Shown here: in pieces, positions 15,013 to 58,097 of the stretch
Layout of the letters: each line of letters begins with the position of its first letter
Numbering within the stretch: position 1 is the stretch's first letter
Source of the DNA: an uncultured bacterium
Lineage (GTDB): Bacteria; Krumholzibacteriota; Krumholzibacteriia; Krumholzibacteriales; Krumholzibacteriaceae
Length of the DNA stretch: 64,000 bases
Reading direction: 5' to 3'
NCBI GenBank assembly: GCA_963813815.1
Contig: CAWFAD010000011.1
Coordinates: forward strand, 96,001 to 160,000
The notes under the pieces: model-generated
What the model was told of the DNA's origin: nothing
Database searches by the model: none
The model's input: only the letters and a program-made list of their open reading frames with translations
Made by a program: the position numbers and the translations under genes

Positions 15013-15909
15013 ATGAATGAACGTTATGTATTAAGCGGAAAATATCTCTTGATCGCGGCACTGGCCTCATTATGTGTCCTCGTATCGGTTCAATCCGGCC
15101 TTGCCGGGGAGGCTGAGAGCGCGCCGCCGCAGGAGCAGGGGGGCTACTCGCTCGACCGCGAGCTCGAGGGGATGGAGATCGTCCACCGGTTCCCGGAGCT
15201 CGTCCCCTACGGCGAGGGAGAGCTTCTCACCTTCGCCATACAGTACGGCCTCATTTACGCCGGGGACGCGACGCTCGAGATCAGGAACATAGCCGAGTTC
15301 GACAGCACGCGAGCGTACCATATCATCTCGACCGCGAAAACGAACGGCGCCTTCGACCGCATTTTCAAGGTCCGCGATCGCCACGATTCCTTCATGGATT
15401 TCGACAACCTCTACAGCCTGAGCTTCGAAAAGCATCTTCGGGAGGGCAAATTCAAGCGGGACGTCAAGGTCGTGTTCGACCAGAAGGAGCACATCGCCGT
15501 CTATCCGGACAAGCGCGTTCCGATCCCTCCGAACACGCAGGATTTTCTGAGCGCCCTCTACTACGCGAGAACGTTGAATCTCGGCGTCGGACAGGCGATC
15601 GCCATGGCGAACCACACGGACGGAAAGAACTATCCGATCTTCATCAAGGTGATCCGCCGCGAGCGCGTCAAGGTGCCCGCCGGCGAGTTCGATTGTCTCG
15701 TCGTCGAGCCGGTCCTCCAGACCTCGGCCATCTTCGAAAACAAGGGCAAATTGACAATCTGGGTGACCGATGATACGGTCAAAATGCCGGTGCTGCTCCG
15801 CTCGAAGGTCGTCGTCGGCGCTTTCGAGGCGGTGCTCAAGGACTACCGGCTGAGCCGCGACGAACACCGTGTGATCGATCGAAAGGATTCGAACCCCGGT
15901 GGCGAGTGA
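15013..15909 (+). CDS. Secreted DUF3108-like protein
   Basis: Signal peptide; GELLTF, FKVRD, QDFLSALYYAR, VKVPAGEFDC, IWVTDD...PV pattern. Confidence 0.7.
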   Translation: MNERYVLSGKYLLIAALASLCVLVSVQSGLAGEAESAPPQEQGGYSLDRELEGMEIVHRFPELVPYGEGELLTFAIQYGLIYAGDATLEIRNIAEFDSTRAYHIISTAKTNGAFDRIFKVRDRHDSFMDFDNLYSLSFEKHLREGKFKRDVKVVFDQKEHIAVYPDKRVPIPPNTQDFLSALYYARTLNLGVGQAIAMANHTDGKNYPIFIKVIRRERVKVPAGEFDCLVVEPVLQTSAIFENKGKLTIWVTDDTVKMPVLLRSKVVVGAFEAVLKDYRLSRDEHRVIDRKDSNPGGE

Positions 15910-16846
15910 TTTCGAGGAAATGGATCTCTCCCGGGTCCGGACGAATTCCATTCGCGAGCGGGGGAGCGTCGTGACGATCCGCGATTTCGCCGATCCTTCC
16001 GCGGGCGTTCCGGCCCGCGCCCGGAGGACGGAGGAACCCGCGGAAGCGCTCGACGAGCGCGGGATACGCAACCTCGCGGAGGCGATGCGCGCGATCGCGG
16101 CCGATCGCGGCCGCGAGATCGTCTGGATGATGGGCGCACACCTCGTCAAGTGCGGGCTCTCGCGCTACGTCATCGAGCTCATGCGCGGCGGATTCATCAC
16201 GGCGGTCGCCATGAACGGGGCCGCCGCGATTCACGACTTCGAGATCAGTTTCTTCGGAGAGACTTCCGAGGACGTCGCGCGGAACCTCGGGCGTGGCATC
16301 TTCGGCTTCGCGCGAGAAACGGCGGACGGGTGTTTCGCCGCGGTGGAGAAGGGACGCCGGGAAGGGCGGGGGCTCGGCGAGTCGCTCGGACGATACCTTG
16401 TGGCGAACGATGCGCCGCACGGGGAGTACGGCATCCTCGCCGCGGCGAGCCGTCTCGGCATACCGGCGACGGTGCACGTCGCCATCGGCACCGATATCCT
16501 GCATCAGCACCGAGGATTCGACGGCGCGGCATGGGGCGAGCTCTCGGCGCGGGATTTCAGGATTCTCGCTTCGCGCGTCGAGCGCCTCGGACGCGCGGGG
16601 GGGGTGGCCGTGAACGTCGGTTCGGCCGTCATCTGCCCCGAGGTGTTTCTCAAGGCCTTGAGCGTGGCGCGCAACCTCGGAGCGCCGTTCGACCGGCTCG
16701 TGACGGCGAACATCGACATGACTCAGCATTACCGGCCCCGCATGAACGTGCTCGCGCGACCGTCCGGATTCGGCGGCGACGCGATCGCGATCACGGGGCG
16801 CCATGAAACCGTGATTCCGCTGCTCTATTCGCTCGTTGTCTCCTGA
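15899..16846 (+). CDS. Conserved hypothetical protein, deoxyhypusine-synthase-like fold
   Basis: MMGAHLVKCG, MNGAAAIHDFE, VHVAIGTDILH, NVGSAVICPEVFLKA; fold call from motif resemblance. Confidence 0.6.
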   Translation: MASDFEEMDLSRVRTNSIRERGSVVTIRDFADPSAGVPARARRTEEPAEALDERGIRNLAEAMRAIAADRGREIVWMMGAHLVKCGLSRYVIELMRGGFITAVAMNGAAAIHDFEISFFGETSEDVARNLGRGIFGFARETADGCFAAVEKGRREGRGLGESLGRYLVANDAPHGEYGILAAASRLGIPATVHVAIGTDILHQHRGFDGAAWGELSARDFRILASRVERLGRAGGVAVNVGSAVICPEVFLKALSVARNLGAPFDRLVTANIDMTQHYRPRMNVLARPSGFGGDAIAITGRHETVIPLLYSLVVS

Positions 16847-16891: not shown

Positions 16892-18214
16892 ATGCACACG
16901 ACACTCGATCGCCCCGGCGGGCGCCGTTCGGCGATGCTCCTCCTCGGGGCGGCCGTGCTCCTCGCGGCTGCGGCGCGGCTCGTCTTCTGTCTCGAAATAG
17001 TCGGGTTCCACGCGCCGCTTCGCGGGGACGAGATCGATTATCACGCGCTCGCTTCCTCCATCGCGGCGGGAGACGGATTCGCCGGCGCGGGGGGGGAAGC
17101 GACGGCGGCCCGGCCGCCTTTGTGGCCGCTCGTTCTCGCGGGGGTCTACCGCCTCGCAGGGCCGAGTCCCGAGGCGGGGAGGGCGCTCGCGATCATCATC
17201 GGAACGCTCGTGGTGCCGCTCGTGTACGCGGCGGCGAAGGGCGCCTTTCCGAAGCGTCCCGCCGTGCCGGCCGTCGCGGCGCTGCTCGCCGCGGTGAACC
17301 CGACGCTCATTTTCATGAGCTCGTACCTCCTCGCCGAGAATCTTTCGATCGTCCTCATGCTGCTCGCCGTGACGGTCGTATCGGCCGGTGTGAGCGGGGA
17401 GCGAGGACTGCGCTCGTATCTCGCGGCGGGAGCTCTTCTCGGGCTCGGAAGCCTCGCGCGTCCGCCGCTCTTTCCGGTCGCGCTCTTCATGGCGGCGTGG
17501 GCAGTGATTGCCGGCGCCGGGGTCTTCCGGCGGCGCCTCGCGAGGGCGGCGGTCCTCGGCGCGGGTCTCGCGGCGGCGCTCGCCCCGTGGGCGGTCCGAA
17601 ACGAGGCTCGTCTCGGCTCGCCCGTGCTCTTCACGACGCACGGAGGCATGACGTTCTATCAGGGGAACAACCCGTCCGTGCGGGACGAGCCCTCTTACCG
17701 TGGTGGAGTCGCGCCCCTCGAGGCGCTTCCCGGCTGGAAGGGCGTTCTGGCGAAGGAGGGAGAGGTCGAGCGCGACAGGGAAGCGTGGCGCCTCGCGAGG
17801 GAGTTCGTCGCCGGCAATCTCTCGAGCGTTCCGCGGATGGCGCTCTGGAAGTTCGTTCGTTTCTGGCGGTTCGGGGGGGACATGGGGCTCTCCGGCGTCC
17901 GGAGCGGGTGGTGGTGGGACAAAGGATCGCGGCTCGGCGCGCTGGCGAGCTCCCTCGACGTTTTTTTCCTCCATTCGATCGTCGTTATCCCGCTCTTCAT
18001 CGCCGGGCTCGCTTTTGCCCTTCGAGAGACGCGCCGGCTCGCGAACCTCCACGCGATCGTCATCGTTCACACGGCGACCGCGCTTTTCTTCTACGGATCG
18101 CTTCGTTCGCGCGCTCCCGTGGAGCCGGTGATAGCGATTTTCGCAGCGTACGCGATAGTGCGGCTCCTCGCGCTCGCCGCCCGGAGGCGGGTCGCCGGCG
18201 ATTTTGCCCGTTGA
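16892..18214 (+). CDS. ArnT/PMT-like (GT-C) membrane glycosyltransferase
   Basis: GDEIDYH first-loop motif, RPPLWP, LLAENL, LARP, PWAVRN; many TM helices. Confidence 0.75.
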   Translation: MHTTLDRPGGRRSAMLLLGAAVLLAAAARLVFCLEIVGFHAPLRGDEIDYHALASSIAAGDGFAGAGGEATAARPPLWPLVLAGVYRLAGPSPEAGRALAIIIGTLVVPLVYAAAKGAFPKRPAVPAVAALLAAVNPTLIFMSSYLLAENLSIVLMLLAVTVVSAGVSGERGLRSYLAAGALLGLGSLARPPLFPVALFMAAWAVIAGAGVFRRRLARAAVLGAGLAAALAPWAVRNEARLGSPVLFTTHGGMTFYQGNNPSVRDEPSYRGGVAPLEALPGWKGVLAKEGEVERDREAWRLAREFVAGNLSSVPRMALWKFVRFWRFGGDMGLSGVRSGWWWDKGSRLGALASSLDVFFLHSIVVIPLFIAGLAFALRETRRLANLHAIVIVHTATALFFYGSLRSRAPVEPVIAIFAAYAIVRLLALAARRRVAGDFAR

Positions 18215-18240
18215 CAAAAGCCCCTGATTTGTGCTAACAT
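18211..18240 (+). promoter_or_regulatory. sigma70-like promoter of polysaccharide cluster leader
   Basis: TTGACA (18211-18216), 18-nt spacer, extended -10 TGcTAACAT (18232-18240). Confidence 0.65.
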
Positions 18241-18262
18241 TCGAGTTGCAATAGGAGGAACC

Positions 18263-18357
18263 ATAAAGAGCGTTTGCTATAGGAATTCGCTTTGAAGCTT
18301 TTGTGAGGCACTCCGCCCGCTTTAAAGTGGCGTTTCTATGGCAAACGTTCTCTTTAT
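18263..18357 (+). ncRNA. Long imperfect hairpin in 5' leader (candidate cis-regulatory RNA)
   Basis: ATAAAGAG/CTCTTTAT, CGTTTGCTATAGGA/TTCTATGGCAAACG and GCTTTGAAGC/GCTTTAAAGT pair (with G-U) around a ~20-nt loop. Confidence 0.6.
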
Positions 18358-18390
18358 ACCCGGGCGGAGGACTCCGCCCGGGTTTTTCTT
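18358..18390 (+). terminator. Intrinsic terminator inside the leader, upstream of sugar transferase
   Basis: ACCCGGGCGGA-GGAC-TCCGCCCGGGT perfect 11-bp stem followed by TTTTCTT. Confidence 0.8.
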
Positions 18391-18406
18391 CGTGGAGGCG
18401 CGCATC

Positions 18407-19096
18407 ATGGCTGGGTCGCCGGAACTTCAGGGAGCGGTCTGCGAAAAAGAGCGGATTGCGAGCATCATACGGCTCAAGGCGGATAGGCAGGACAGGGTGT
18501 ATGCGTCCATGAAGCGCCTGACGGACATCATCGTCGCCACTTTTCTGCTCGTCCTCTTCCTGCCGATCATTCCTGTCGTTGCCATTCTGATACGCTTCGA
18601 TTCTCCGGGCCCCATCTTCTTCAAGCAGAGGAGAATCGGAAAGGACGGGAAAGCGTTCGATTTTTACAAGTTTCGGTCGATGGTCTCGGGCGCCGAGAAC
18701 GTCATCGACGCGCTTCGTCCCTTGAGCGGCGTCGACGGCCCCGTTTTCAAGATAAAGGAAGATCCGCGGGTCACGCGTGTGGGTAGATTCCTTCGCCGTT
18801 CCAGCCTCGACGAACTCCCGCAGCTCATCAACGTGCTTCGAGGCGAGATGAGCATCGTCGGCCCGCGTCCCAACCTTCCCTCCGAGGTGTCCCAATACCT
18901 TCCCTGGCAGCGCAAGCGCCTCGATGTCACGCCGGGCATCACCTGTTTCTGGCAGATCGCGGGCAGAAGCCACATTGGGTTCCAGGAATGGATGCGCCTC
19001 GATCTCGAGTATGTCCGCAAGAGAAGCTATGTTACGGACCTCAAGATCATGATGAAGACCGTCCCGGCGGTCATCGCCAGGAAGGGGGCCTACTAG
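18407..19096 (+). CDS. Priming sugar transferase (bacterial sugar transferase / phosphoglycosyl transferase)
   Basis: KRLTDI, FFKQRRIG, KFRSM, DPRVTRVGRFLRRSSLDELPQLINVLRGEMSIVGPRP; GGAGG RBS before ATG 18407. Confidence 0.92.
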   Translation: MAGSPELQGAVCEKERIASIIRLKADRQDRVYASMKRLTDIIVATFLLVLFLPIIPVVAILIRFDSPGPIFFKQRRIGKDGKAFDFYKFRSMVSGAENVIDALRPLSGVDGPVFKIKEDPRVTRVGRFLRRSSLDELPQLINVLRGEMSIVGPRPNLPSEVSQYLPWQRKRLDVTPGITCFWQIAGRSHIGFQEWMRLDLEYVRKRSYVTDLKIMMKTVPAVIARKGAY

Positions 19097-19130
19097 GCTT
19101 CCGCGGCACGCATCTTGCAATCGAGAAAAA

Positions 19131-19159
19131 TTGACATAGTGTGCGCATTTTCTTAAATT
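19131..19159 (+). promoter_or_regulatory. sigma70-like promoter for wza operon
   Basis: TTGACA (19131-19136), 17-nt spacer, TAAATT (19154-19159). Confidence 0.6.
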
Positions 19160-19211
19160 CGCTTCAAGCGTATGTATTTGCATGGCGTTCTTACCGTTGA
19201 AAGGGTTCTCG

Positions 19212-20006
19212 ATGAGGCCGACGGGTCTTAGCCGCGCGGTGTATCTCGGCGTCGCGTGCGCGGTCTCCCTCTCGATCGCCGGATGCGGGGGAGGAAACAA
19301 GCTCATCGCGAGCCGGAACGGGCTCGTGGAGAGCGGCACGCTCGAGCTCGACAGCATTCCCGTCTCCCCCGCCGAAGGCGAGTACGTCATCGGGCAGGGA
19401 GACCGTGTCGACATTCGCTTCCCCTTCAACTCGGAGCTCGATGAGATCGGAGTGCCGGTGAGGCCGGACGGCAGGATCACGCTGTCGCTCATAGGCGACG
19501 TGGTCGCCGCGGGGATGACGCCCTCGGCGCTCGACTCCGTTATCACGAGCCGCTACGCCGAGTTCGTCGTCGATCCGAACGTCGCCGTCATCGTGAAGGA
19601 CTTCGCGGCGCAGGTCGTCTACGTGCTCGGCGAGGTGGGGACGGCGGGCGGATTCCCCTACGAGCGCGGAATGACGCTCCTCGGCGCGCTCGCGCTGGGC
19701 CGCGGTCCGACGCCGAAGGGGGCTTCGAACGGCGTGCTCATCATCCGGAAGATCGGCCCCGCGCACGTCATCGGCATACAGATCGATTACGGGGACGTCG
19801 CGGGCGGAAAGCGGTTCGATCTCAACGTGCCCCTGCAGGCGGGCGACATCGTGCTCGTTCCGAAATCGCGCATCGGCAAGACGCAGGACTTCGTCCTCAT
19901 GCTCCATGACATTCTCAGCAGGCCGTTAGACCTCTATCTCAAGGGTTGGAATGTGGCGAACGCGAAGATCATGTTCGATTACTACCAGCGGGTGGGACAG
20001 TTCTAA
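19212..20006 (+). CDS. wza: Polysaccharide export lipoprotein (Wza/OPX family)
   Basis: Lipobox LSIAGC; YVIGQGD, VRPDGRITL, VYVLGEV, LQAGDIVLVP; start could be 19182. Confidence 0.85.
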   Translation: MRPTGLSRAVYLGVACAVSLSIAGCGGGNKLIASRNGLVESGTLELDSIPVSPAEGEYVIGQGDRVDIRFPFNSELDEIGVPVRPDGRITLSLIGDVVAAGMTPSALDSVITSRYAEFVVDPNVAVIVKDFAAQVVYVLGEVGTAGGFPYERGMTLLGALALGRGPTPKGASNGVLIIRKIGPAHVIGIQIDYGDVAGGKRFDLNVPLQAGDIVLVPKSRIGKTQDFVLMLHDILSRPLDLYLKGWNVANAKIMFDYYQRVGQF

Positions 20007-21385
20007 TGGCGGGAATCGCAGAAGGCACCGGCGAGCTGCGGCGCGAATCGACCGTCAAGGATTTCCTCGAGGTCGTCTTCCGGCGCAAGTGGGTCATTCT
20101 GGGGATCGTCGCCGTGGCGGTCGTCGTCACGACGATCATGATGCTCCGCCAGCCCGCCATGTACGAGTCGTCGGCGAAGATTCTCGCGCGGCGGGGCGAG
20201 GCGCCCGGGGTCTACGATCCGAGCATACGCACGCTCACGTGGGAAGAGGAAATCTCCTCGCAGATCGAAATGATCAAATCGCAGGTCGTCACGAGCGCCG
20301 CCCAGAGCCTTCTGCCGCGGTTCCTGCCCGAGGGAAAGCGGACCTCGGAGACGATCATACTCGAGCGCGTGAACGCGGGGGTCGTCTCGACGTCGAACGT
20401 CATTTGGGTCACCTACAACTCCCGCAGCGCCGTGTTCTGCAAGGCGGCGGTCGACGCGGTCGTGACCGCGTACCAGGAATATTACGCGAGCATGCGGACG
20501 CCTCCCGTTATGGAGGACTTCTTCGCGCAGGAGATCGGGCGTCTTCAAGAGGAGCTCGAGTTCTGGAGAGCGCGCAAGGAAGACGTCCTGAAGAGCTGGG
20601 ACATCGTCGACATGGAAACCCAGCGCCGGAGCCTCATCGAGCGGCTCGCCGCGTACGAGGGGGATCTGAACGAGGCGATGCTCGACCGCACGCGGCTCGA
20701 AACGATCGTCGCGAATCTCGAGAGCCTGCGCTCGAGCACCTTCGAGTCTCTCGTAGCGGCCTCGACCGGTCTCACCGATTCGGCGATCGAGGGAACGGTC
20801 ATCGCGGATCTCCGCGTCAAGATCCATGCGCTGGCCCTGCAGGAATCGGAGCTCGCGGCCAAGCTCACCGATGAGAATCCCGAGCTCGTTCGGATCCGCG
20901 CCCAGATCAAAGACGCGCGCGCCATGCTCGCGAAGGAAGTGGACACGCAAGTCCTCATGGCCCGCATGCAGCTCGACGTGATCGAGAATCGCGAGGCGAT
21001 GATTCGGGGCATACTCGACGGTCTCGCCGCTCGAAAGGCCGCCTATCCGCAGAAGGAAGTGGAGTTCGAGAGGGTCGAGGTGACGCTCGCCAAGCTGCAG
21101 TCGACGTACGAGGACGTGGTCGACCAGCACATGGCTGCGAAGATCAAGGTCGCGAGCAATCCCGAGTGGACCGTGACCATTCTCAACGCTGCGAGCGAGG
21201 CGTATCGCAAGAAGACGCTCGATTACGTCCGCATGGCGCTCGGGCCGCTCTTCAGCCTCATCGTGGCGCTCGGTCTCGCCTTCTTCGTGGACAATCTCGA
21301 TCATTCGATCAAGAGTATCACGGAGGCCGAGGAGAGCCTGGGGCTTTCGGTGCTGGCCAATTTCCCCGAGACGAGCAGGAAATAA
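20006..21385 (+). CDS. Polysaccharide co-polymerase / chain-length determinant (Wzz/GumC-like)
   Basis: DFLEVVFRRKWVI TM1, YESSAKIL, long coiled coil, C-terminal TM, LDHSIKS...EESLGLSVL. Confidence 0.85.
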   Translation: MAGIAEGTGELRRESTVKDFLEVVFRRKWVILGIVAVAVVVTTIMMLRQPAMYESSAKILARRGEAPGVYDPSIRTLTWEEEISSQIEMIKSQVVTSAAQSLLPRFLPEGKRTSETIILERVNAGVVSTSNVIWVTYNSRSAVFCKAAVDAVVTAYQEYYASMRTPPVMEDFFAQEIGRLQEELEFWRARKEDVLKSWDIVDMETQRRSLIERLAAYEGDLNEAMLDRTRLETIVANLESLRSSTFESLVAASTGLTDSAIEGTVIADLRVKIHALALQESELAAKLTDENPELVRIRAQIKDARAMLAKEVDTQVLMARMQLDVIENREAMIRGILDGLAARKAAYPQKEVEFERVEVTLAKLQSTYEDVVDQHMAAKIKVASNPEWTVTILNAASEAYRKKTLDYVRMALGPLFSLIVALGLAFFVDNLDHSIKSITEAEESLGLSVLANFPETSRK

Positions 21386-21391
21386 GATTCT

Positions 21392-22243
21392 ATGTACGAG
21401 GAATTCTTCGGGTTCAAAGAGCTACCGTTCAACGTGACGCCCGATCCTCATTTCCTGTACCGGAGCAGGAGTCACCGGGACGCGCTCGCGTACATCACGT
21501 ACGGCGTGTTCCAGCGCAAGGGATTCATCGCGGTGACGGGAGAGGTAGGGGTCGGCAAGACGACGGTCGTCAGCGCCTTCATGGATCTCTTCGAGCCCTC
21601 CCTCGAGGTCGCCTTTATTTTTTCGACGAAGTTCCCCTTCGATCAGCTCCTCTACCTCATCTGCAAGGATTTCGGGCTGCAGGCGGACGGGCTCAACAAG
21701 GCGCAGATGCTGCTCCTCCTGAACGAGTTCCTCATCGGGCAGAACGAAAATAACCGCAACGCCGTTCTCATCATAGACGAGGCGCACAACCTGAGCCCCG
21801 ACGTGCTCGAAGAGCTTCGGATGCTCTCGAACCTCGAGACGCGCGACCGCAAGCTTCTCCAGATCATGCTCGTCGGACAGCCCGAGCTCGAGATCGTGCT
21901 CAACATGAACGAGCTGAGGCAGCTTCGCCAGCGCATACCGGGCATCTGCCGCATTTCGGTCCTCGGCCGCGAAGACGTGGAGAACTACATCAGCTATCGT
22001 CTCGAGGTGGCGGGCGGGGGCCGGGGCCTCGTCCAGTTCACTTCCGATTCGTTCGACGAAATATTTCACTATTCGGGAGGCATTCCGCGGCTTATAAACA
22101 TACTGTGCGACCGCGTGCTGCTCGTCGCGTACGTGTCGAGCACGCGGGTCGTCGACGGCCGGATCGTGCGGGAGGGGATCAGGGATCTGGAATCGCCCGG
22201 GTTCGACGCCGGCAAGCGCCGCGTCGTGAAGCCGCGCGTCTAG
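21392..22243 (+). CDS. ExeA/PrsA-like AAA ATPase
   Basis: MYEEFFGFKELPFNVTPDP, GEVGVGKTT, IIDEAHNL, LVGQPEL, SGGIPRLINILCD. Confidence 0.88.
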   Translation: MYEEFFGFKELPFNVTPDPHFLYRSRSHRDALAYITYGVFQRKGFIAVTGEVGVGKTTVVSAFMDLFEPSLEVAFIFSTKFPFDQLLYLICKDFGLQADGLNKAQMLLLLNEFLIGQNENNRNAVLIIDEAHNLSPDVLEELRMLSNLETRDRKLLQIMLVGQPELEIVLNMNELRQLRQRIPGICRISVLGREDVENYISYRLEVAGGGRGLVQFTSDSFDEIFHYSGGIPRLINILCDRVLLVAYVSSTRVVDGRIVREGIRDLESPGFDAGKRRVVKPRV

Positions 22244-22271
22244 CGGCGCGGGGGCGAACGGAGAGCCGGAG

Positions 22272-23036
22272 ATGAGCAAGATATACGACGCGCTGCGGAA
22301 GGCGGAAAAGGGCCGCGATCGGCCGATCGAGCGCGGGCCCGACGAGCGGCCGCGCGTCACCGTCCGCCCGCTCGAGGAATCCCGCGTGCTCACCGGCATG
22401 AACGAGAGGTTCCGCCGGTCGCTCCTCAATCTCAAGAACGCGATCGATTCGGAGATGAAGACGAAGGCGTCCCGCGTCGTGCTCTTCACGAGCGCGGTCC
22501 GGGGGGAGGGCAAGACGACGATCGTCGCCTCTCTCGCCCGGATACTCTCGCTCCACGATTCGCAGAAGCTGCTGCTCGTCGACTGCGCGGTTCGCGATCC
22601 GAAGCTCCACGGCCTCTTCGGCATGAGGAACGAAAAGGGCGTCGTGGAGTATCTCTCGGGACGGGCATCCTTCGCCGACATCGTGCGGCCGGTCGACGAG
22701 GGGGCGCTCGATCTCGTGACGGCGGGCCTCTGCGAGGAAGTCGATGCTCTGCAGCCGCTTTTCAACTCGGAGGCCCTGAGCCTGTTCTTCAAGGAAGCGG
22801 CCTCGCGTTACGACTACGTGCTCGTCGATTCGTCGGCCGTGCTCGAGTCGCCGGAGACGCCGCTCATCGGCTCGCGCGTCGACGGCATCGTGCTCGTGGT
22901 TCACGCGGCCAAAACGCGGCGCGAGGTCATCAAGCGGGCCATGCTCATGGTGCAGAAGCTCGATGGAAGATTCATCGGCACCGTCCTCAATAGAAAACAG
23001 TACTATATCCCCGAGGGCATCTACCGACGGGTGTGA
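22272..23036 (+). CDS. CpsD/CapB-family bacterial tyrosine kinase
   Basis: MSKIYDALRKAE, TSAVRGEGKTT, LLVDC, VLVDS, Tyr-containing tail YYIPEGIY. Confidence 0.85.
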   Translation: MSKIYDALRKAEKGRDRPIERGPDERPRVTVRPLEESRVLTGMNERFRRSLLNLKNAIDSEMKTKASRVVLFTSAVRGEGKTTIVASLARILSLHDSQKLLLVDCAVRDPKLHGLFGMRNEKGVVEYLSGRASFADIVRPVDEGALDLVTAGLCEEVDALQPLFNSEALSLFFKEAASRYDYVLVDSSAVLESPETPLIGSRVDGIVLVVHAAKTRREVIKRAMLMVQKLDGRFIGTVLNRKQYYIPEGIYRRV

Positions 23037-24253
23037 CACGCGCCGTGACTCGATCCCGCGAGTGGTGGCAGCATCGTTCCCCGGCATTCCTTGCCGCTTG
23101 TGCGCGTCTCATCGAGGAGCGCATCGGGCGCGGGAAGGCGCGGGCCGTCGTCATATGCGGCAGCTTCGCGACGGGAGACGAATCGATCGTTCTCGAGACG
23201 GAGCCGCCCATCCTGCTTTCCGACGTCGACACGGTGGTCGTCGTACCTTCCCTCGCCGATCTCCAACGCTGGGGTGCGCGGCGCGTCGAGCTCGGGGCGG
23301 CCTGCGAGGCCCTTCTGCCCGAGGTTCGTTTCGCCGGCCGCGTGGACGTTGGTTTCATGCTGGAGCGGGATCTCGGCGCCCTTCCCGCGCGCCCGGGCGT
23401 TCTCGACATGCGAAGCGCGGGGCGGGTGCTGGCGGGCGAGCCCCGGGTAATCGAGGCGGTTCCGGACTACCGGCCTTCGGACATTCAAGCGCGCGAGGCG
23501 GTGATACTCATCGAGAACCGCATCGTGTCCCTGCTCGGATGGGTGTCAGGAGGAGCGGGGAGCGGGGAGGAGGGGTGGTATCGCTTCCGCTATGAAATGG
23601 CGAAGGCGTATACGGACATGGCGGCCGCGGCCCTCTCGATCGCGGGCTCGTATCGCGCGGGATACGCCGCGCGCGCCGGAGAGGTCGCCGATGTCCCGCC
23701 CGAGGGGAGATCCGTGGTCGGACGGCTCATCGACGCCCCGCTCGGGCGGAGGATAGCGGCCTGGACCGATTTCAAGATCGCGCCGTCGCGCGGCTCGGCT
23801 CCTCCCGGTTCGGAAGGCGCGGACGCCGCTCTCTGGGAGGAGACGGCGAGCGATCTGGAGGGTTTCTGGCGGCGGACGGCCGCCTTCGCGTTCTCCGGCG
23901 CTCAGGGCCTCATTCGGGAGCCGCGGGACGAGGATCTCGTCGAAGCGGGGAGACGGGCCGCGGGAGCGCGCGACCGGTGGAGGAGCTGGCGGGGATACCT
24001 CCCCCGTCTCGGCGCGGCGCGGGCCGCCATGATCCTCGCGGGTCGCGGCGCGGGTCTCCTCGGCGCCTTCCCCGACGATCTGATTCGGGAGCACGGGGCG
24101 AGGCTTCTCGTTCACCGCGTGAGCCGCGGAGCGGCGGCGCCCGTAAAGAGGCCGGCCGGCGGATGGCCGTATCGATCGACCGAGTGGCCGGAAGCCGCCG
24201 AAGAGCTCTCGCGCGTCTGGCGCGAATTGGTGTTCGGACGGAAGGAAGCGTAG
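23033..24253 (+). CDS. Hypothetical protein with Pol-beta-type nucleotidyltransferase motif
   Basis: VICGSFATGDE...LSDVDTVVV (GS...DxD), third acidic residue in VDVG, helical C-terminal part. Confidence 0.6.
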   Translation: MTRAVTRSREWWQHRSPAFLAACARLIEERIGRGKARAVVICGSFATGDESIVLETEPPILLSDVDTVVVVPSLADLQRWGARRVELGAACEALLPEVRFAGRVDVGFMLERDLGALPARPGVLDMRSAGRVLAGEPRVIEAVPDYRPSDIQAREAVILIENRIVSLLGWVSGGAGSGEEGWYRFRYEMAKAYTDMAAAALSIAGSYRAGYAARAGEVADVPPEGRSVVGRLIDAPLGRRIAAWTDFKIAPSRGSAPPGSEGADAALWEETASDLEGFWRRTAAFAFSGAQGLIREPRDEDLVEAGRRAAGARDRWRSWRGYLPRLGAARAAMILAGRGAGLLGAFPDDLIREHGARLLVHRVSRGAAAPVKRPAGGWPYRSTEWPEAAEELSRVWRELVFGRKEA

Positions 24254-24256
24254 GCG

Positions 24257-25405
24257 ATGATCGAGCGAACGATCGTCATCCTGATCGACGCCCTCGGGTT
24301 CACGCTCGCGGGAGCACGGGGATTCGCGCCGGCCGGGCTCGCGCATCGCGCCCGCGTGCGGACGGTGCTCGGCTTCAGCCAGGCGGCGATCGCGACGATC
24401 CTGACCGGTCTCGCGCCGTCGGAGCATGGGTTGTGGATGATGTACGCGTTCAGCGAGCGCGGAGGACCGCTCCGCTGGCTCCGGGGCCTCCCGCCATTCG
24501 TGTCGACGCGGCGCCGATGGCTGAGAAGGCTCATGGCCTGGGACCTGCGCGTCGCGCACGGCGTGCGGGGGTATTTCAGCCTCTATGACGTGCCGCGAGA
24601 GGTGCTGCCGTATCTCGATCTCCCCGCTCGGGGGAATATCTTTGCGCCGGGCGGGGCCGCCCCGGCGCGCACGATTCTCGACGATCTCGTGGGGGGCGGC
24701 GAGCCGTTTCGCGTCTGGGATTACCGCACGGACGAGGAGCGATCTTTCGCCGAGCTCGAGGAAGCGGCGGCCGCGGGGAGGCAGAGCTTTCTTCTTCTCT
24801 ATGCGGCGGGGCTCGATTCCGATCTGCACCGCTTCGGCCGCGGCGACGGGCGGATCGCCGCGCGCCTCGAGTGGTATCGCGGCAGGATCGATCGGATCGT
24901 GGAGGCGGCGGGCGCATCAGGCGGGGCGAGGGTGTTCGTGCTCGGCGACCATGGCATGTGCGACGTTCGTTCGCGGATCGACGTCATGGCGCGCGTCGGC
25001 GCTCTCGGCCTCGGAATCCCGGGCGATTACATCCCGTTCTATGATTCGACGATGGCACGCTTCAAGGTGTTCTCCGGCTCCGCCCGGTCGCGGCTCGAGA
25101 TCTGTCTCGGCGACCTTCCGGGCGGGCGCATGCTCGGGGCGGAGGATCTGCGGGCGCTCGGTGCGGGAGGTGGTGGGGGACGATACGGCGATATGGTGTA
25201 CCTCGCCGATCCGGGCGTCGTCATAGCCCCGAGCCACATGGGAGAGGGGAGGGTCGCGGCTATGCACGGTTACCATCCGGACGCGGAGGACATGTACAGC
25301 GTTATGCTGTCGAACGTTCCCCTTCCGTCGGGTGAGCTTGAGCTCGCCTCCGTGGCCCGCGTGCTCCGGCCTCGCTTCGTTCCCGGCGGAGGTGGAGCCC
25401 CGTGA
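24257..25405 (+). CDS. Alkaline phosphatase superfamily (phosphodiesterase/NPP-like) protein
   Basis: LIDALG, FSQAAIATILTG, DSDLH, GDHGM, MHGY metal-ligand motifs. Confidence 0.8.
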   Translation: MIERTIVILIDALGFTLAGARGFAPAGLAHRARVRTVLGFSQAAIATILTGLAPSEHGLWMMYAFSERGGPLRWLRGLPPFVSTRRRWLRRLMAWDLRVAHGVRGYFSLYDVPREVLPYLDLPARGNIFAPGGAAPARTILDDLVGGGEPFRVWDYRTDEERSFAELEEAAAAGRQSFLLLYAAGLDSDLHRFGRGDGRIAARLEWYRGRIDRIVEAAGASGGARVFVLGDHGMCDVRSRIDVMARVGALGLGIPGDYIPFYDSTMARFKVFSGSARSRLEICLGDLPGGRMLGAEDLRALGAGGGGGRYGDMVYLADPGVVIAPSHMGEGRVAAMHGYHPDAEDMYSVMLSNVPLPSGELELASVARVLRPRFVPGGGGAP

Positions 25406-26898
25406 CGATCGAAAAGGTCGCCCGCGCGATGCCATGGAGCCTCGCGGCGAGAGCGCTCGCCTTCGCGGCCGGCATCGTGGGAAACATCCTCATCGTTCGC
25501 TCGCTCGGCGCGCTGGGGTGGGGAATGCTGAGCGAGCTGCGGACGATCGTCGGCTTCGCGTTCGTTCTCGTTATGCTCGGCCTCGATGCCGCTCTCGTGA
25601 AATACATCCCCCTGCTCGGCGTGCGCGGCGGGCTTCGGGGATTCTTCAGAACGTTCCGTGGGCTCGTTCTCCTGCAGATCTCGGTATGGCTCGCCCTCAT
25701 CCTCGCGGCGTATTTCGGCGAGGGCTCTTTCGCGCGTCTCTTCGAGGGCCATCCCCCGCGGTTCGGGTTCTACCTCCAGATAGCCGTCGTCTTCGTGATC
25801 TTCGAGATATTTCTGCAGCTCCTCTCGAGCGCGCTGCAGTCGTTCTACGAGACGAAGCGTCTCGCGGCGGCGGTCGCCTGCGGGAACGTGCTCTACATCG
25901 CGATCCTCATCGCTGTTCTGAGCGCGGGGCACGGGGTCGTGGGCGTGCTCGCGGCGTCCGCGGCCGCCAATCTCTGCATCGCCGCCATTCTTGCTCCCCG
26001 CGCGGCGGCTCTCGCCGAGCGCGCGCCGGAGGGAGCCGGACCGGCGATGGGGGAGCTGCTGCGCTTCTCGCTCCCCTTCGTCATAACGGGGATACTCAAC
26101 CAGATCGTGTGGCGCCAATCGGAGGTGCTTTTTCTCGGACACTTCCGGGGGGCGGCGGAGGCCGGATTCTTCAGCCTCGCTTACCGGACGCCCCAGCTGC
26201 TTCTCGAGTTCGTTCCGCTTACCGTCTATCCGCTCATTATGGCCGGGTCGTCGGAGGTATTCGCGCGCGACGCGCGCAACCTCGCGGGGGCGGTCGATCT
26301 CTATTACCGCCTGCTCTACCTGCTCGTCGTCCCGGTCGCCGCGTTCGGCTTCGCGTTCGCGCGGCCCCTCGTGCCTCTGCTGTATGGAGCGGAAATGCTT
26401 CCGGCTGCATCACTTACACAGCTCTTTTTCGTTGTGTTTTCGTACTCCTTTCTCTATACTCCGCTCAGCATGGCCCTCTACGTCATGGGCAAGAGCTGGA
26501 TCAACATGTCGATATTTCTGACGCTCGCCGTCGTGAACGTGGGCCTCGATCTCTTGCTCATTCCGCGTTACGGGATGTGGGGCGCGATGATTCCGGTTCC
26601 CATCGTGCTCACCTCGGCGGTCGTGCTGTTCCATGCGGCCATGAGGCGCGAGCGCCCGGACGTGAGGATTCCCTGGCGCTTCATCGGGCGGTGCTGTCTC
26701 GGCGCGCTGCCGCTCGCCGCTCTCGCGATCCCGTCCTCGCGGTGGACCGGAGCGTGGGCGATCGCGATCATGGCTCCCGCGGGGATCGCTCTTCTCTACG
26801 CGGGATTCCGGCTGTTCCGGGTCATCGGCGATGAGGAGAAAAATCTCATCCGGAAGCTGCCGATTCCTATGAAGGAGCGTCTGCTCAGTCTCTTCTGA
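25402..26898 (+). CDS. wzx: Wzx/MOP-family polysaccharide flippase
   Basis: 498 aa, ~12-14 TM; ELLRFSLP, AGFFSLAY, LLIPRYGMWGA. Confidence 0.85.
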   Translation: MTIEKVARAMPWSLAARALAFAAGIVGNILIVRSLGALGWGMLSELRTIVGFAFVLVMLGLDAALVKYIPLLGVRGGLRGFFRTFRGLVLLQISVWLALILAAYFGEGSFARLFEGHPPRFGFYLQIAVVFVIFEIFLQLLSSALQSFYETKRLAAAVACGNVLYIAILIAVLSAGHGVVGVLAASAAANLCIAAILAPRAAALAERAPEGAGPAMGELLRFSLPFVITGILNQIVWRQSEVLFLGHFRGAAEAGFFSLAYRTPQLLLEFVPLTVYPLIMAGSSEVFARDARNLAGAVDLYYRLLYLLVVPVAAFGFAFARPLVPLLYGAEMLPAASLTQLFFVVFSYSFLYTPLSMALYVMGKSWINMSIFLTLAVVNVGLDLLLIPRYGMWGAMIPVPIVLTSAVVLFHAAMRRERPDVRIPWRFIGRCCLGALPLAALAIPSSRWTGAWAIAIMAPAGIALLYAGFRLFRVIGDEEKNLIRKLPIPMKERLLSLF

Positions 26899-49062: not shown

Positions 49063-49138
<76 letters not shown>

Positions 49139-49148
49139 TTTTTTTTGA

Positions 49149-49223
49149 GGCGGCATAGCCAAGTGGTAAGGCGACGGTCTGCAAAACCGTTACTCACCGG
49201 TTCGAATCCGGTTGCCGCCTCCA
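49149..49223 (+). tRNA. tRNA-Cys (GCA)
   Basis: GGCGGCA acceptor, anticodon loop CTGCAAA, GGTTCGAATCC, encoded CCA. Confidence 0.97.
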
Positions 49224-49344
49224 ATCATTTCCGGCCGCGGCGTGCCTGCCGGCGCCGCCTCTCGTGATTTCCGGACAAAGCGGCCAGATGGGCGGGGCGG
49301 GACCCGGGGCGCCGAGCGAGGCGCCTGAGCGGGGGCTATTTGCC

Positions 49345-49373
49345 TTGCCGCGCCTTTCGATTGGTCTTAGAAT
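49345..49373 (+). promoter_or_regulatory. sigma70-like promoter for tRNA-Leu
   Basis: TTGCCG (49345-50), 17 nt, TAGAAT (49368-73). Confidence 0.55.
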
Positions 49374-49382
49374 CGCCGACGT

Positions 49383-49468
49383 GCCGGGGTGGCGGAATTG
49401 GGAGACGCAGCGGACTTAAAATCCGCTGGAGCGCGAGCTCCATACCGGTTCGATTCCGGTCCCCGGCA
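49383..49468 (+). tRNA. tRNA-Leu (TAA)
   Basis: GCCGGGG/CCCCGGC acceptor, anticodon loop CTTAAAA, long variable arm, GGTTCGATTCC; no encoded CCA. Confidence 0.95.
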
Positions 49469-58020: not shown

Positions 58021-58097
58021 GGGCGATTAGCTCAGATGGTTAGAGTACCTGCTTGACATGCAGGGGGTCACTGGTTCAATTCCAGTATCGCCCACCA
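58021..58097 (+). tRNA. tRNA-Val (GAC)
   Basis: GGGCGAT acceptor, anticodon loop TTGACAT, GGTTCAATTCC, encoded CCA. Confidence 0.96.

Follow-up and report, generated by a model that had tools for sequence, protein, structure and literature searches.

An apparently undescribed, putative attenuator RNA upstream of a priming glycosyltransferase gene in Ca. Krumholzibacteriota

The leader and its locus

The window, that is, the whole 64,000-nt stretch of DNA analysed here, carries on its forward strand a priming glycosyltransferase gene that is preceded by a structured leader and followed by two promoter-like sites and a set of polysaccharide export genes. The features referred to below are as follows.

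18211..18240, + strand: sigma70-type promoter (-35 hexamer 18211-16, extended -10 18232-40)
near 18247, + strand: predicted transcription start
18253..18258, + strand: Shine-Dalgarno-like AGGAGG without a start codon in the normal range (GGAGG, 18254-58, is the consensus of the 45-sequence alignment)
18263..18357, + strand: long hairpin P1 of the predicted OFF state
18263..18286, + strand: region 1, the 5′ strand of the lower stem (putative anti-antiterminator; masking up to the core flips the predicted fold)
18274-76, + strand: possible distal UUG, inside region 1
18275-79, + strand: core TGCTA, inside region 1
18311..18319, + strand: region 2, the putative antiterminator strand, pairing with 18361-18369 in the ON fold
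18323..18356, + strand: inner hairpin into which the freed 3′ strand would close in the ON fold (constrained fold, prediction only)
18358..18390, + strand: intrinsic terminator (11-bp stem 18358-18383 and interrupted U-run to 18390)
18394..18398, + strand: ribosome-binding site GGAGG of the glycosyltransferase gene, kept before the ATG
18407..19096, + strand: priming glycosyltransferase (Bac_transf, PF02397; 229 aa), the putatively regulated gene
19105..19118, + strand: sigma54-type -24/-12 motif, as we take it to be, directly after the stop codon
19131..19159, + strand: second sigma70-like promoter, before the export genes (loose pattern in 39/43 homologues)
19182..26898, + strand: Wzy-type export and chain-length genes (wza-like, wzz-like, ATPase, tyrosine kinase, flippase)

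A sequence-only reading of this DNA had described several of these parts, and its coordinates were all correct on rechecking. The promoter that it placed at 18211-18240 has an extended TG and 10 of 12 consensus matches; two promoter-like sites were found against 0.3 expected from shuffles, and the sigma70-type promoter is kept at the same place in 45/45 aligned homologues. Its hairpin at 18263-18357 was borne out by the folding stability of 18241-18406 (z = -6.2, with 0/200 shuffles equally stable), its 11-bp terminator was found at 18358-18383 with an interruption in the U-run that follows, and the ribosome-binding site and the ATG (18407) lie where it had put them. The same is true of the relation between hairpin loop and terminator arm: ACTCCGCCCG at 18310-19 is identical to 18371-80, and CTCCGCCCG is complementary to 18361-69. 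Overlooked in that reading were the invariant GGAGG (18254-58) and TGCTA (18275-79), a second copy in the genome and the promoters after the gene. An in-frame ATG at 18338 was considered as a start and taken as incidental, because it lies inside the stem and the homologues share the start at 18407.

It had also been considered that the gene might have a promoter of its own; a pattern scan found none between the terminator and the ATG at 18407. Downstream, the sigma54-type motif (its -24/-12 assignment presumes the sigma54 consensus) is found after the glycosyltransferase stop codon in 43/43 homologues with enough sequence, and rpoN is present in the genome. This motif and the sigma70-like promoter stand back to back (19105-19159). 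Since the export genes have promoters of their own, control by the leader would fall mainly on the first committed step, that of the priming gene. The export genes resemble XrtA/PEP-CTERM-associated loci, with scores below the curated cut-offs of those models. By record titles, the closest named relatives of the glycosyltransferase come from Ca. Krumholzibacteriota and then from Ca. Eisenbacteria; its residues 1-10 (18407-18436) are conserved across the order and the next 25 vary. A GSU2086-family gene lies upstream of the locus (15899-16846), and in families f5 and f9 a similar C-terminal sequence immediately precedes the glycosyltransferase. The window also holds four tRNA genes (49063-49468 and 58021-58094), which were its only Rfam matches.

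Pairing, covariation and the two predicted folds

Pairing in P1 and the terminator is kept in 96% of cells over 17 sequences, a value reached by 1/500 shuffles (shuffle controls of pairing may be inflated by the kinship of the sequences), and falls to 36-50% in slid registers. The changes in P1 are mostly one-sided and involve G-U pairs, and over 45 sequences double changes occur in each helix, the long stem as well as the terminator. Several homologues (G011, G018, G042, G043 and G057) have a poor U-run. In the helix between loop and terminator, the eight aligned pairs are 91% paired over 17 homologues, 4/8 with double changes; slid registers reach 27-55%, and 0/500 shuffles attain the score, with the same caution as to kinship.

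The strands that form this second helix differ wholly between genera, both sequence and register having changed: in this genus, the partner of the terminator 5′ arm is the 3′ side of the loop, and other genera use either the loop or the upper-stem 5′ strand, which then pairs across the terminator apex. With one sequence from each of 19 genera, the cognate hairpin-terminator duplex has an energy of -14.9 kcal/mol, versus -11.7 +/- 0.6 kcal/mol when the partners are permuted across genera, and 0/20000 permutations matched the cognate energy. Taken singly, 32/45 duplexes beat their own shuffles at p <= 0.05, and 13/45 did not, partly because the segment analysed cut the terminator 3′ arm. The compensation between loop and terminator that the sequence-only reading had expected of orthologous leaders was thus found.

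The pseudoknot that it had derived from this complementarity was not supported. Counting inner pairs, the stem region comprises 25-44 pairs with a median of 34; stem and terminator are joined by a linker with a median length of 7 nt, and of 2 nt at this locus. An A-form helix rises by about 2.8 Å per pair and a linker nucleotide spans about 6-7 Å; by this inference such a linker would fall short of the apex unless the stem bends or opens, which speaks against a pseudoknot while the hairpin is intact. When the 5′ end is held unpaired up to TGCTA, the predicted fold becomes an antiterminator of 18311-19 with 18361-69, which is nested because the freed 3′ strand closes into an inner hairpin (18323..18356). 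Over the homologues, masking lifts the mean antiterminator pairing probability from 0.23 to 0.61, with a gain above 0.1 in 39/45; the rise starts when the mask reaches TGnTA and plateaus just beyond, and the masked antiterminator scores 0.62 with cognate terminators versus 0.36 with those of other genera. Judged from alignments and folding models, the hairpin-terminator complementarity is an alternative fold as in attenuators of the trp type, and not a pseudoknot on an intact hairpin.

The predicted ON-OFF gap at this locus is 21.7 kcal/mol at 37 °C and 14.5 kcal/mol at 60 °C; over the 45 sequences, the median is 17.6 kcal/mol (range 5.2-31.4) and, at 60 °C, 7.6 kcal/mol with a minimum of 0.1 kcal/mol. 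With so large a gap, a ligand or heat is unlikely to flip the finished RNA, and the choice would therefore have to fall during transcription or via a shorter transcript. This divides the earlier proposal of a two-state switch: an attenuator gating the priming glycosyltransferase, conserved and covarying, still stands, and a riboswitch or thermosensor has become unlikely. In such a reading, a small molecule or temperature would act on a loop-terminator pseudoknot or kissing pair, much as in guanidine-IV. The complementarity is real, the pseudoknot would be feasible in this genus once the lower stem is open, and a two-hairpin, terminator-containing ON switch has a precedent in the available part of PMC7736828. 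However, the loop is unconserved in sequence and register, no aptamer fold is common to the families, the element is tied to a single gene family and has no Rfam match, and the energy gap weighs against it at either temperature; we regard a switch of this kind as very improbable.

Distribution, conserved core and second copy

A DNA search found the element in 14/15 genomes of the same genus, and a covariance model built from 22 sequences found it in 39/43 genomes of the family. In a 151-genome sample of the phylum, the model matches 31/32 genomes of family f1, 1/1 of f2 and 5/6 of f3, and 0/111 genomes of the remaining families. Full matches come from 45 genomes of one order of Ca. Krumholzibacteriota, where the element is single-copy apart from one duplicate in the source genome, which answers the earlier concern that it might be a multicopy repeat. 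It precedes the orthologous priming glycosyltransferase gene in 44/45 cases, the exception (G041) having no ORF called under the ATG rule, and pattern matches in metagenomes lie before the same gene in 7/7 cases. These counts leave out a weak second match in G031, the deviant Eisenbacteria leader L232 and the hairpin's reverse-strand self-matches.

The suggestion that the leader belongs to no known family was upheld against the covariance models of Rfam 15 (riboswitches, T-box, JUMPstart, EAR and others): no model matched at gathering or E-value thresholds, the best local score at the leader was 20 bits where 70 were needed, and 17 related loci gave 0 matches. Literature searches combining Krumholzibacteriota with riboswitch, or Eisenbacteria with structured RNA, returned no publication, and no paper on the motif came up in a survey by title and abstract opening, largely of literature outside the subscription journals. 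In summary, alignments and predicted folds indicate that the leader is a real, conserved and apparently undescribed attenuator RNA before the priming glycosyltransferase gene.

In sequence comparison, the deepest-conserved part of the leader is a core of a Shine-Dalgarno-like GGAGG followed, after a spacer of mostly 13-19 nt, by TGnTA (110 leaders, two phyla). Within TGnTA, the G and the final A are invariant (each 110/110); the motif matches the TG motif of sigma70-type promoters and the first TA of the -10 hexamer, the last T of which is present in just 7/110. The distal position behind GGAGG is occupied by TTG, CTG or ATG in 103/110 leaders and by TCG or TGG in 7/110. A sigma54 reading of the core was rejected, the required spacing being found in 0/45.

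Thirty genomes of other families were inspected ahead of their best orthologue, and 14/30 have GGAGG, 13-16 nt and (T/C)G(C/T)TA after a promoter-like site (11 recognised by pattern and 3 by eye). In 11 genomes of family f4, the gene is coupled to an upstream ORF and no core motif was seen; the motif is also absent in three f8 genomes and in G071, and G077 ends at a contig edge. The downstream folds differ among the families that share the core (L233-L254; f5, f6, f7 and f9), some being of the terminator type and some covering the ribosome-binding site: most f5 and f7 leaders show predicted pairing of region 1 over or beside the gene's ribosome site, and in f9 a stem, U-run and terminator are formed again. 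A search in front of 55 more distant relatives of the glycosyltransferase did not detect the core motif, and among the matches listed from a regulon scan of the genome, which gave 165 loose and 5 strict ones, none was convincing besides the duplicate.

In Ca. Eisenbacteria, the corresponding leader is about 290 nt long, with the same core, a weaker GGAG and a terminator-like hairpin. A sequence-only model of it matched 60/151 genomes, 48 of them strongly (52 sequences); the core is present in 51 leaders with differing downstream folds, and the loci tried gave no Rfam match. As this model does not find the Krumholzibacteriota element, the kinship of the two phyla's leaders rests only on position, core motif and terminator. 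Nested folding showed no switch in this group (0.64 unmasked, 0.60 masked), and covariation suggests competing helices round one central segment. Among the several competing helices of these leaders (L043-L056, L160-L189 and L215-L232) is one of 8 pairs that extends beyond the terminator-like hairpin and ends shortly ahead of the ribosome site.

The second copy in the source genome (G000:C7:237080-237250, L002) is 69% identical, has the promoter, GGAGG, stem and terminator, and precedes the gene of a 1652-aa secreted Peptidase_C25 protein. Its loop motif is deleted, and the masked fold is predicted to be a 9-pair antiterminator drawn from the upper stem. The covariance model found no second copy in close relatives among the family genomes, and it therefore looks like a recent co-option, if not an assembly artefact.

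The short terminated RNA could itself be the product, as a small RNA or decoy, or the stem could be an RNase III substrate that sets expression, the complementarity then being secondary. The element does have its own promoter and terminator, RNase III is present in the genome, and about 85 nt separate the second copy from the start codon that follows; against this, the element is always in cis to the same gene, no promoter stands between the terminator and the ATG, and the f5 and f7 versions are without a terminator and do not have TGnTA in a long duplex. These points leave such a role for the short RNA or the stem, like the riboswitch, very improbable.

What might open region 1, and likeness to known systems

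No start codon stands where one would normally follow the leader's GGAGG: ATG, GTG or TTG occurs 3-10 nt behind it in 0/56 lineages (13 expected) and in 0/98 distinct spacers; two controls, the upstream sequence and the reverse strand, gave 13 and 18. Reading on from GGAGG, the conserved distal UUG/CUG is the first NUG reached. This candidate UUG lies at 13-18 nt, and the genome's real sites peak at 4-10 nt. No conserved leader ORF or peptide was found, frames and lengths being variable. Counted in favour of a ribosome are this lack of start codons in the normal range and the fact that GGAGG is extended towards the anti-Shine-Dalgarno more commonly than at ordinary sites, by a T in 17/19 and 10/14 leaders versus 31% of ordinary sites in this genome. 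The avoidance of start codons is expected under any model in which leader RNA is made, and recognition by sigma accounts for the TGnTA logo no less well than any feature of the ribosome does. Together, the conservation, the two exclusive predicted folds, the core and the start-codon avoidance make an attenuator architecture highly probable.

We propose that RNA from the sigma70 promoter would adopt the long hairpin (1:2) together with the terminator (3:4) as its default fold, so that transcription presumably stops near 18388 (OFF). If region 1 were covered to about 18283 during transcription, the lower stem would be unable to close, and the freed region 2 could pair with the terminator 5′ arm and apex (2:3), which would allow the glycosyltransferase to be transcribed (ON). 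The likeliest cover would be a small ribosomal subunit that the start-less GGAGG captures, perhaps with help from a sigma-type pause at TGnTA, and that may initiate inefficiently at the conserved UUG/CUG further on; binding of the 30S subunit at a start-less Shine-Dalgarno site has a precedent in STAB-SD, as described in the accessible part of PMC4113751. The output would then track free-ribosome supply or initiation stringency. Ribosome capture at the start-less site is our best guess for the trigger, a tentative one to which we would give somewhat less than an even chance; with the architecture granted, a ribosomal trigger comes close to an even chance. The fuller version is possible, if doubtful: a ribosome-sensing attenuator without a leader peptide, in which the start-less Shine-Dalgarno is spaced to a sigma-type pause so that the small subunit loads on the paused RNA polymerase, with the core kept in two phyla, the output rewired between termination and covering of the ribosome site, and the whole copied once before a peptidase gene.

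The same attenuator could be read by a protein or a trans-acting RNA that binds two single-stranded sites, GGAGG and UGCUA, joined by a flexible linker, and holds region 1 open. TGnTA is invariant on the 5′ strand, whereas wobbles and mismatches are tolerated in the strand opposite; spacer lengths range over 13-19 nt, and GGAGG often lies in the loop of a small hairpin. All of this would suit a binding factor, and no observation contradicts one, but no candidate was found among the proteins searched. CsrA occurs in 10/52 genomes of the order and in 0/15 of this genus (0/15 and 0/7 in the two largest genera), just one NusG was found in each of the 43/52 genomes with a match, and neither a CAT_RBD protein nor Hfq was found in this 91%-complete genome. 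The search for an ANTAR protein gave no match in the genome, and none in the control genomes either; in a pattern scan, no intergenic complementary RNA stood out. We consider such a factor unlikely.

Distinctly unlikely, in our view, is that GGAGG-N-TGnTA is a second promoter, used by an alternative sigma factor or as an activated extended -10, with a start near 18289, from which a short transcript without region 1 would fold ON; the upstream sigma70 promoter would then make the terminated RNA and may occlude the second one. The invariant G and A fit the extended -10 pattern TGcTATAAT as given in the available part of PMC3326312. The implied start has a pyrimidine-purine step in 29/45 and 35/51 leaders, the transcript from 18289 is predicted to fold ON, the terminator and ribosome-site-covering versions would both be explained, and the genome has two RpoS/RpoD-like paralogues. 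The promoter switch of spo0A reportedly has a translational part, and the switch itself is a precedent so far as the accessible part of PMC5540618 goes. Yet the hexamer's last T is nearly always missing (present in 7/110), a spacer spread of 13-19 nt is wide for sigma, the sigma54 spacing was found in none of 45, the strict motif (5 matches) has no other promoter-proximal copy beyond the duplicate, the core was not seen upstream of 13 sigma genes, and a near-consensus upstream promoter kept merely for silencing would be unparsimonious.

Two sigma genes of this genome deserve mention in their own right. A short RpoD/RpoS-like one (G000:C12 near 211400, L274) is preceded by what we take to be a half-CIRCE-like operator and an ECF-type promoter, which would suggest a heat-shock role. 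In the RpoS-like one (G000:C11 near 207600, L273), apparent substitutions were noted by eye in the regions presumed to read the extended -10 and the -35.

The conserved core, in an RNA motif family from two uncultured phyla that is absent from Rfam, fits none of the triggers tested (leader peptide, CsrA, NusG paralogue, RAT protein, ligand and heat), and its strong natural compensation makes the putative switch directly testable in a reporter or purified system. If ribosomes do act via the start-less site, the leader would be categorically new, a coupling of translation capacity to transcription in which free-ribosome supply or initiation stringency gates the step that starts polysaccharide synthesis. 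Should a protein or a second promoter be at work instead, the leader would still reveal an unknown regulator of this committed step.

Leader-peptide attenuators of the trp type have mutually exclusive 1:2, 2:3 and 3:4 folds and an intrinsic terminator. The leader shares these in its predicted folds and likewise has region 1 beside a Shine-Dalgarno, but it differs in having no conserved ORF or canonical start, a very long stem and a polysaccharide gene as its target. Antitermination also controls polysaccharide operons in the RfaH/ops, UpxY, LoaP and EAR systems, which the leader resembles in the process controlled; unlike them, it comes with no NusG paralogue or Rfam match and would be a local one-gene switch rather than a processive antiterminator. 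The lower stem loosely resembles the RAT hairpin of BglG/SacY antiterminators, but no CAT_RBD protein was found in this genome, and the leader's stem is apart from the terminator and would promote termination.

The STAB-SD of cry3A, according to the available part of PMC4113751, is likewise a start-less, Shine-Dalgarno-like site near the 5′ end, which binds 30S, starts no translation and blocks RNase J1; here the site is tied to a predicted folding switch, and RNase J gave no match in the 91%-complete genome. The guanidine-IV and Gd4v riboswitches, as far as the accessible parts of PMC7736828 and PMC9788692 describe them, are ON switches made of a hairpin and a terminator with mutual pairing, a plan that the leader shares, but their nucleotides are conserved across phyla before several gene classes, whereas the strands that pair in the leader vary freely, and a single gene is regulated. 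Finally, the leader is like the sigma-dependent promoter-proximal pause elements, as presented in the available parts of PMC3326312 and PMC5389655, in carrying a TG and a -10-like sequence in the early transcribed region; it differs from them in that the hexamer's last T is lacking and in that the motif is linked, at 13-19 nt, to GGAGG.
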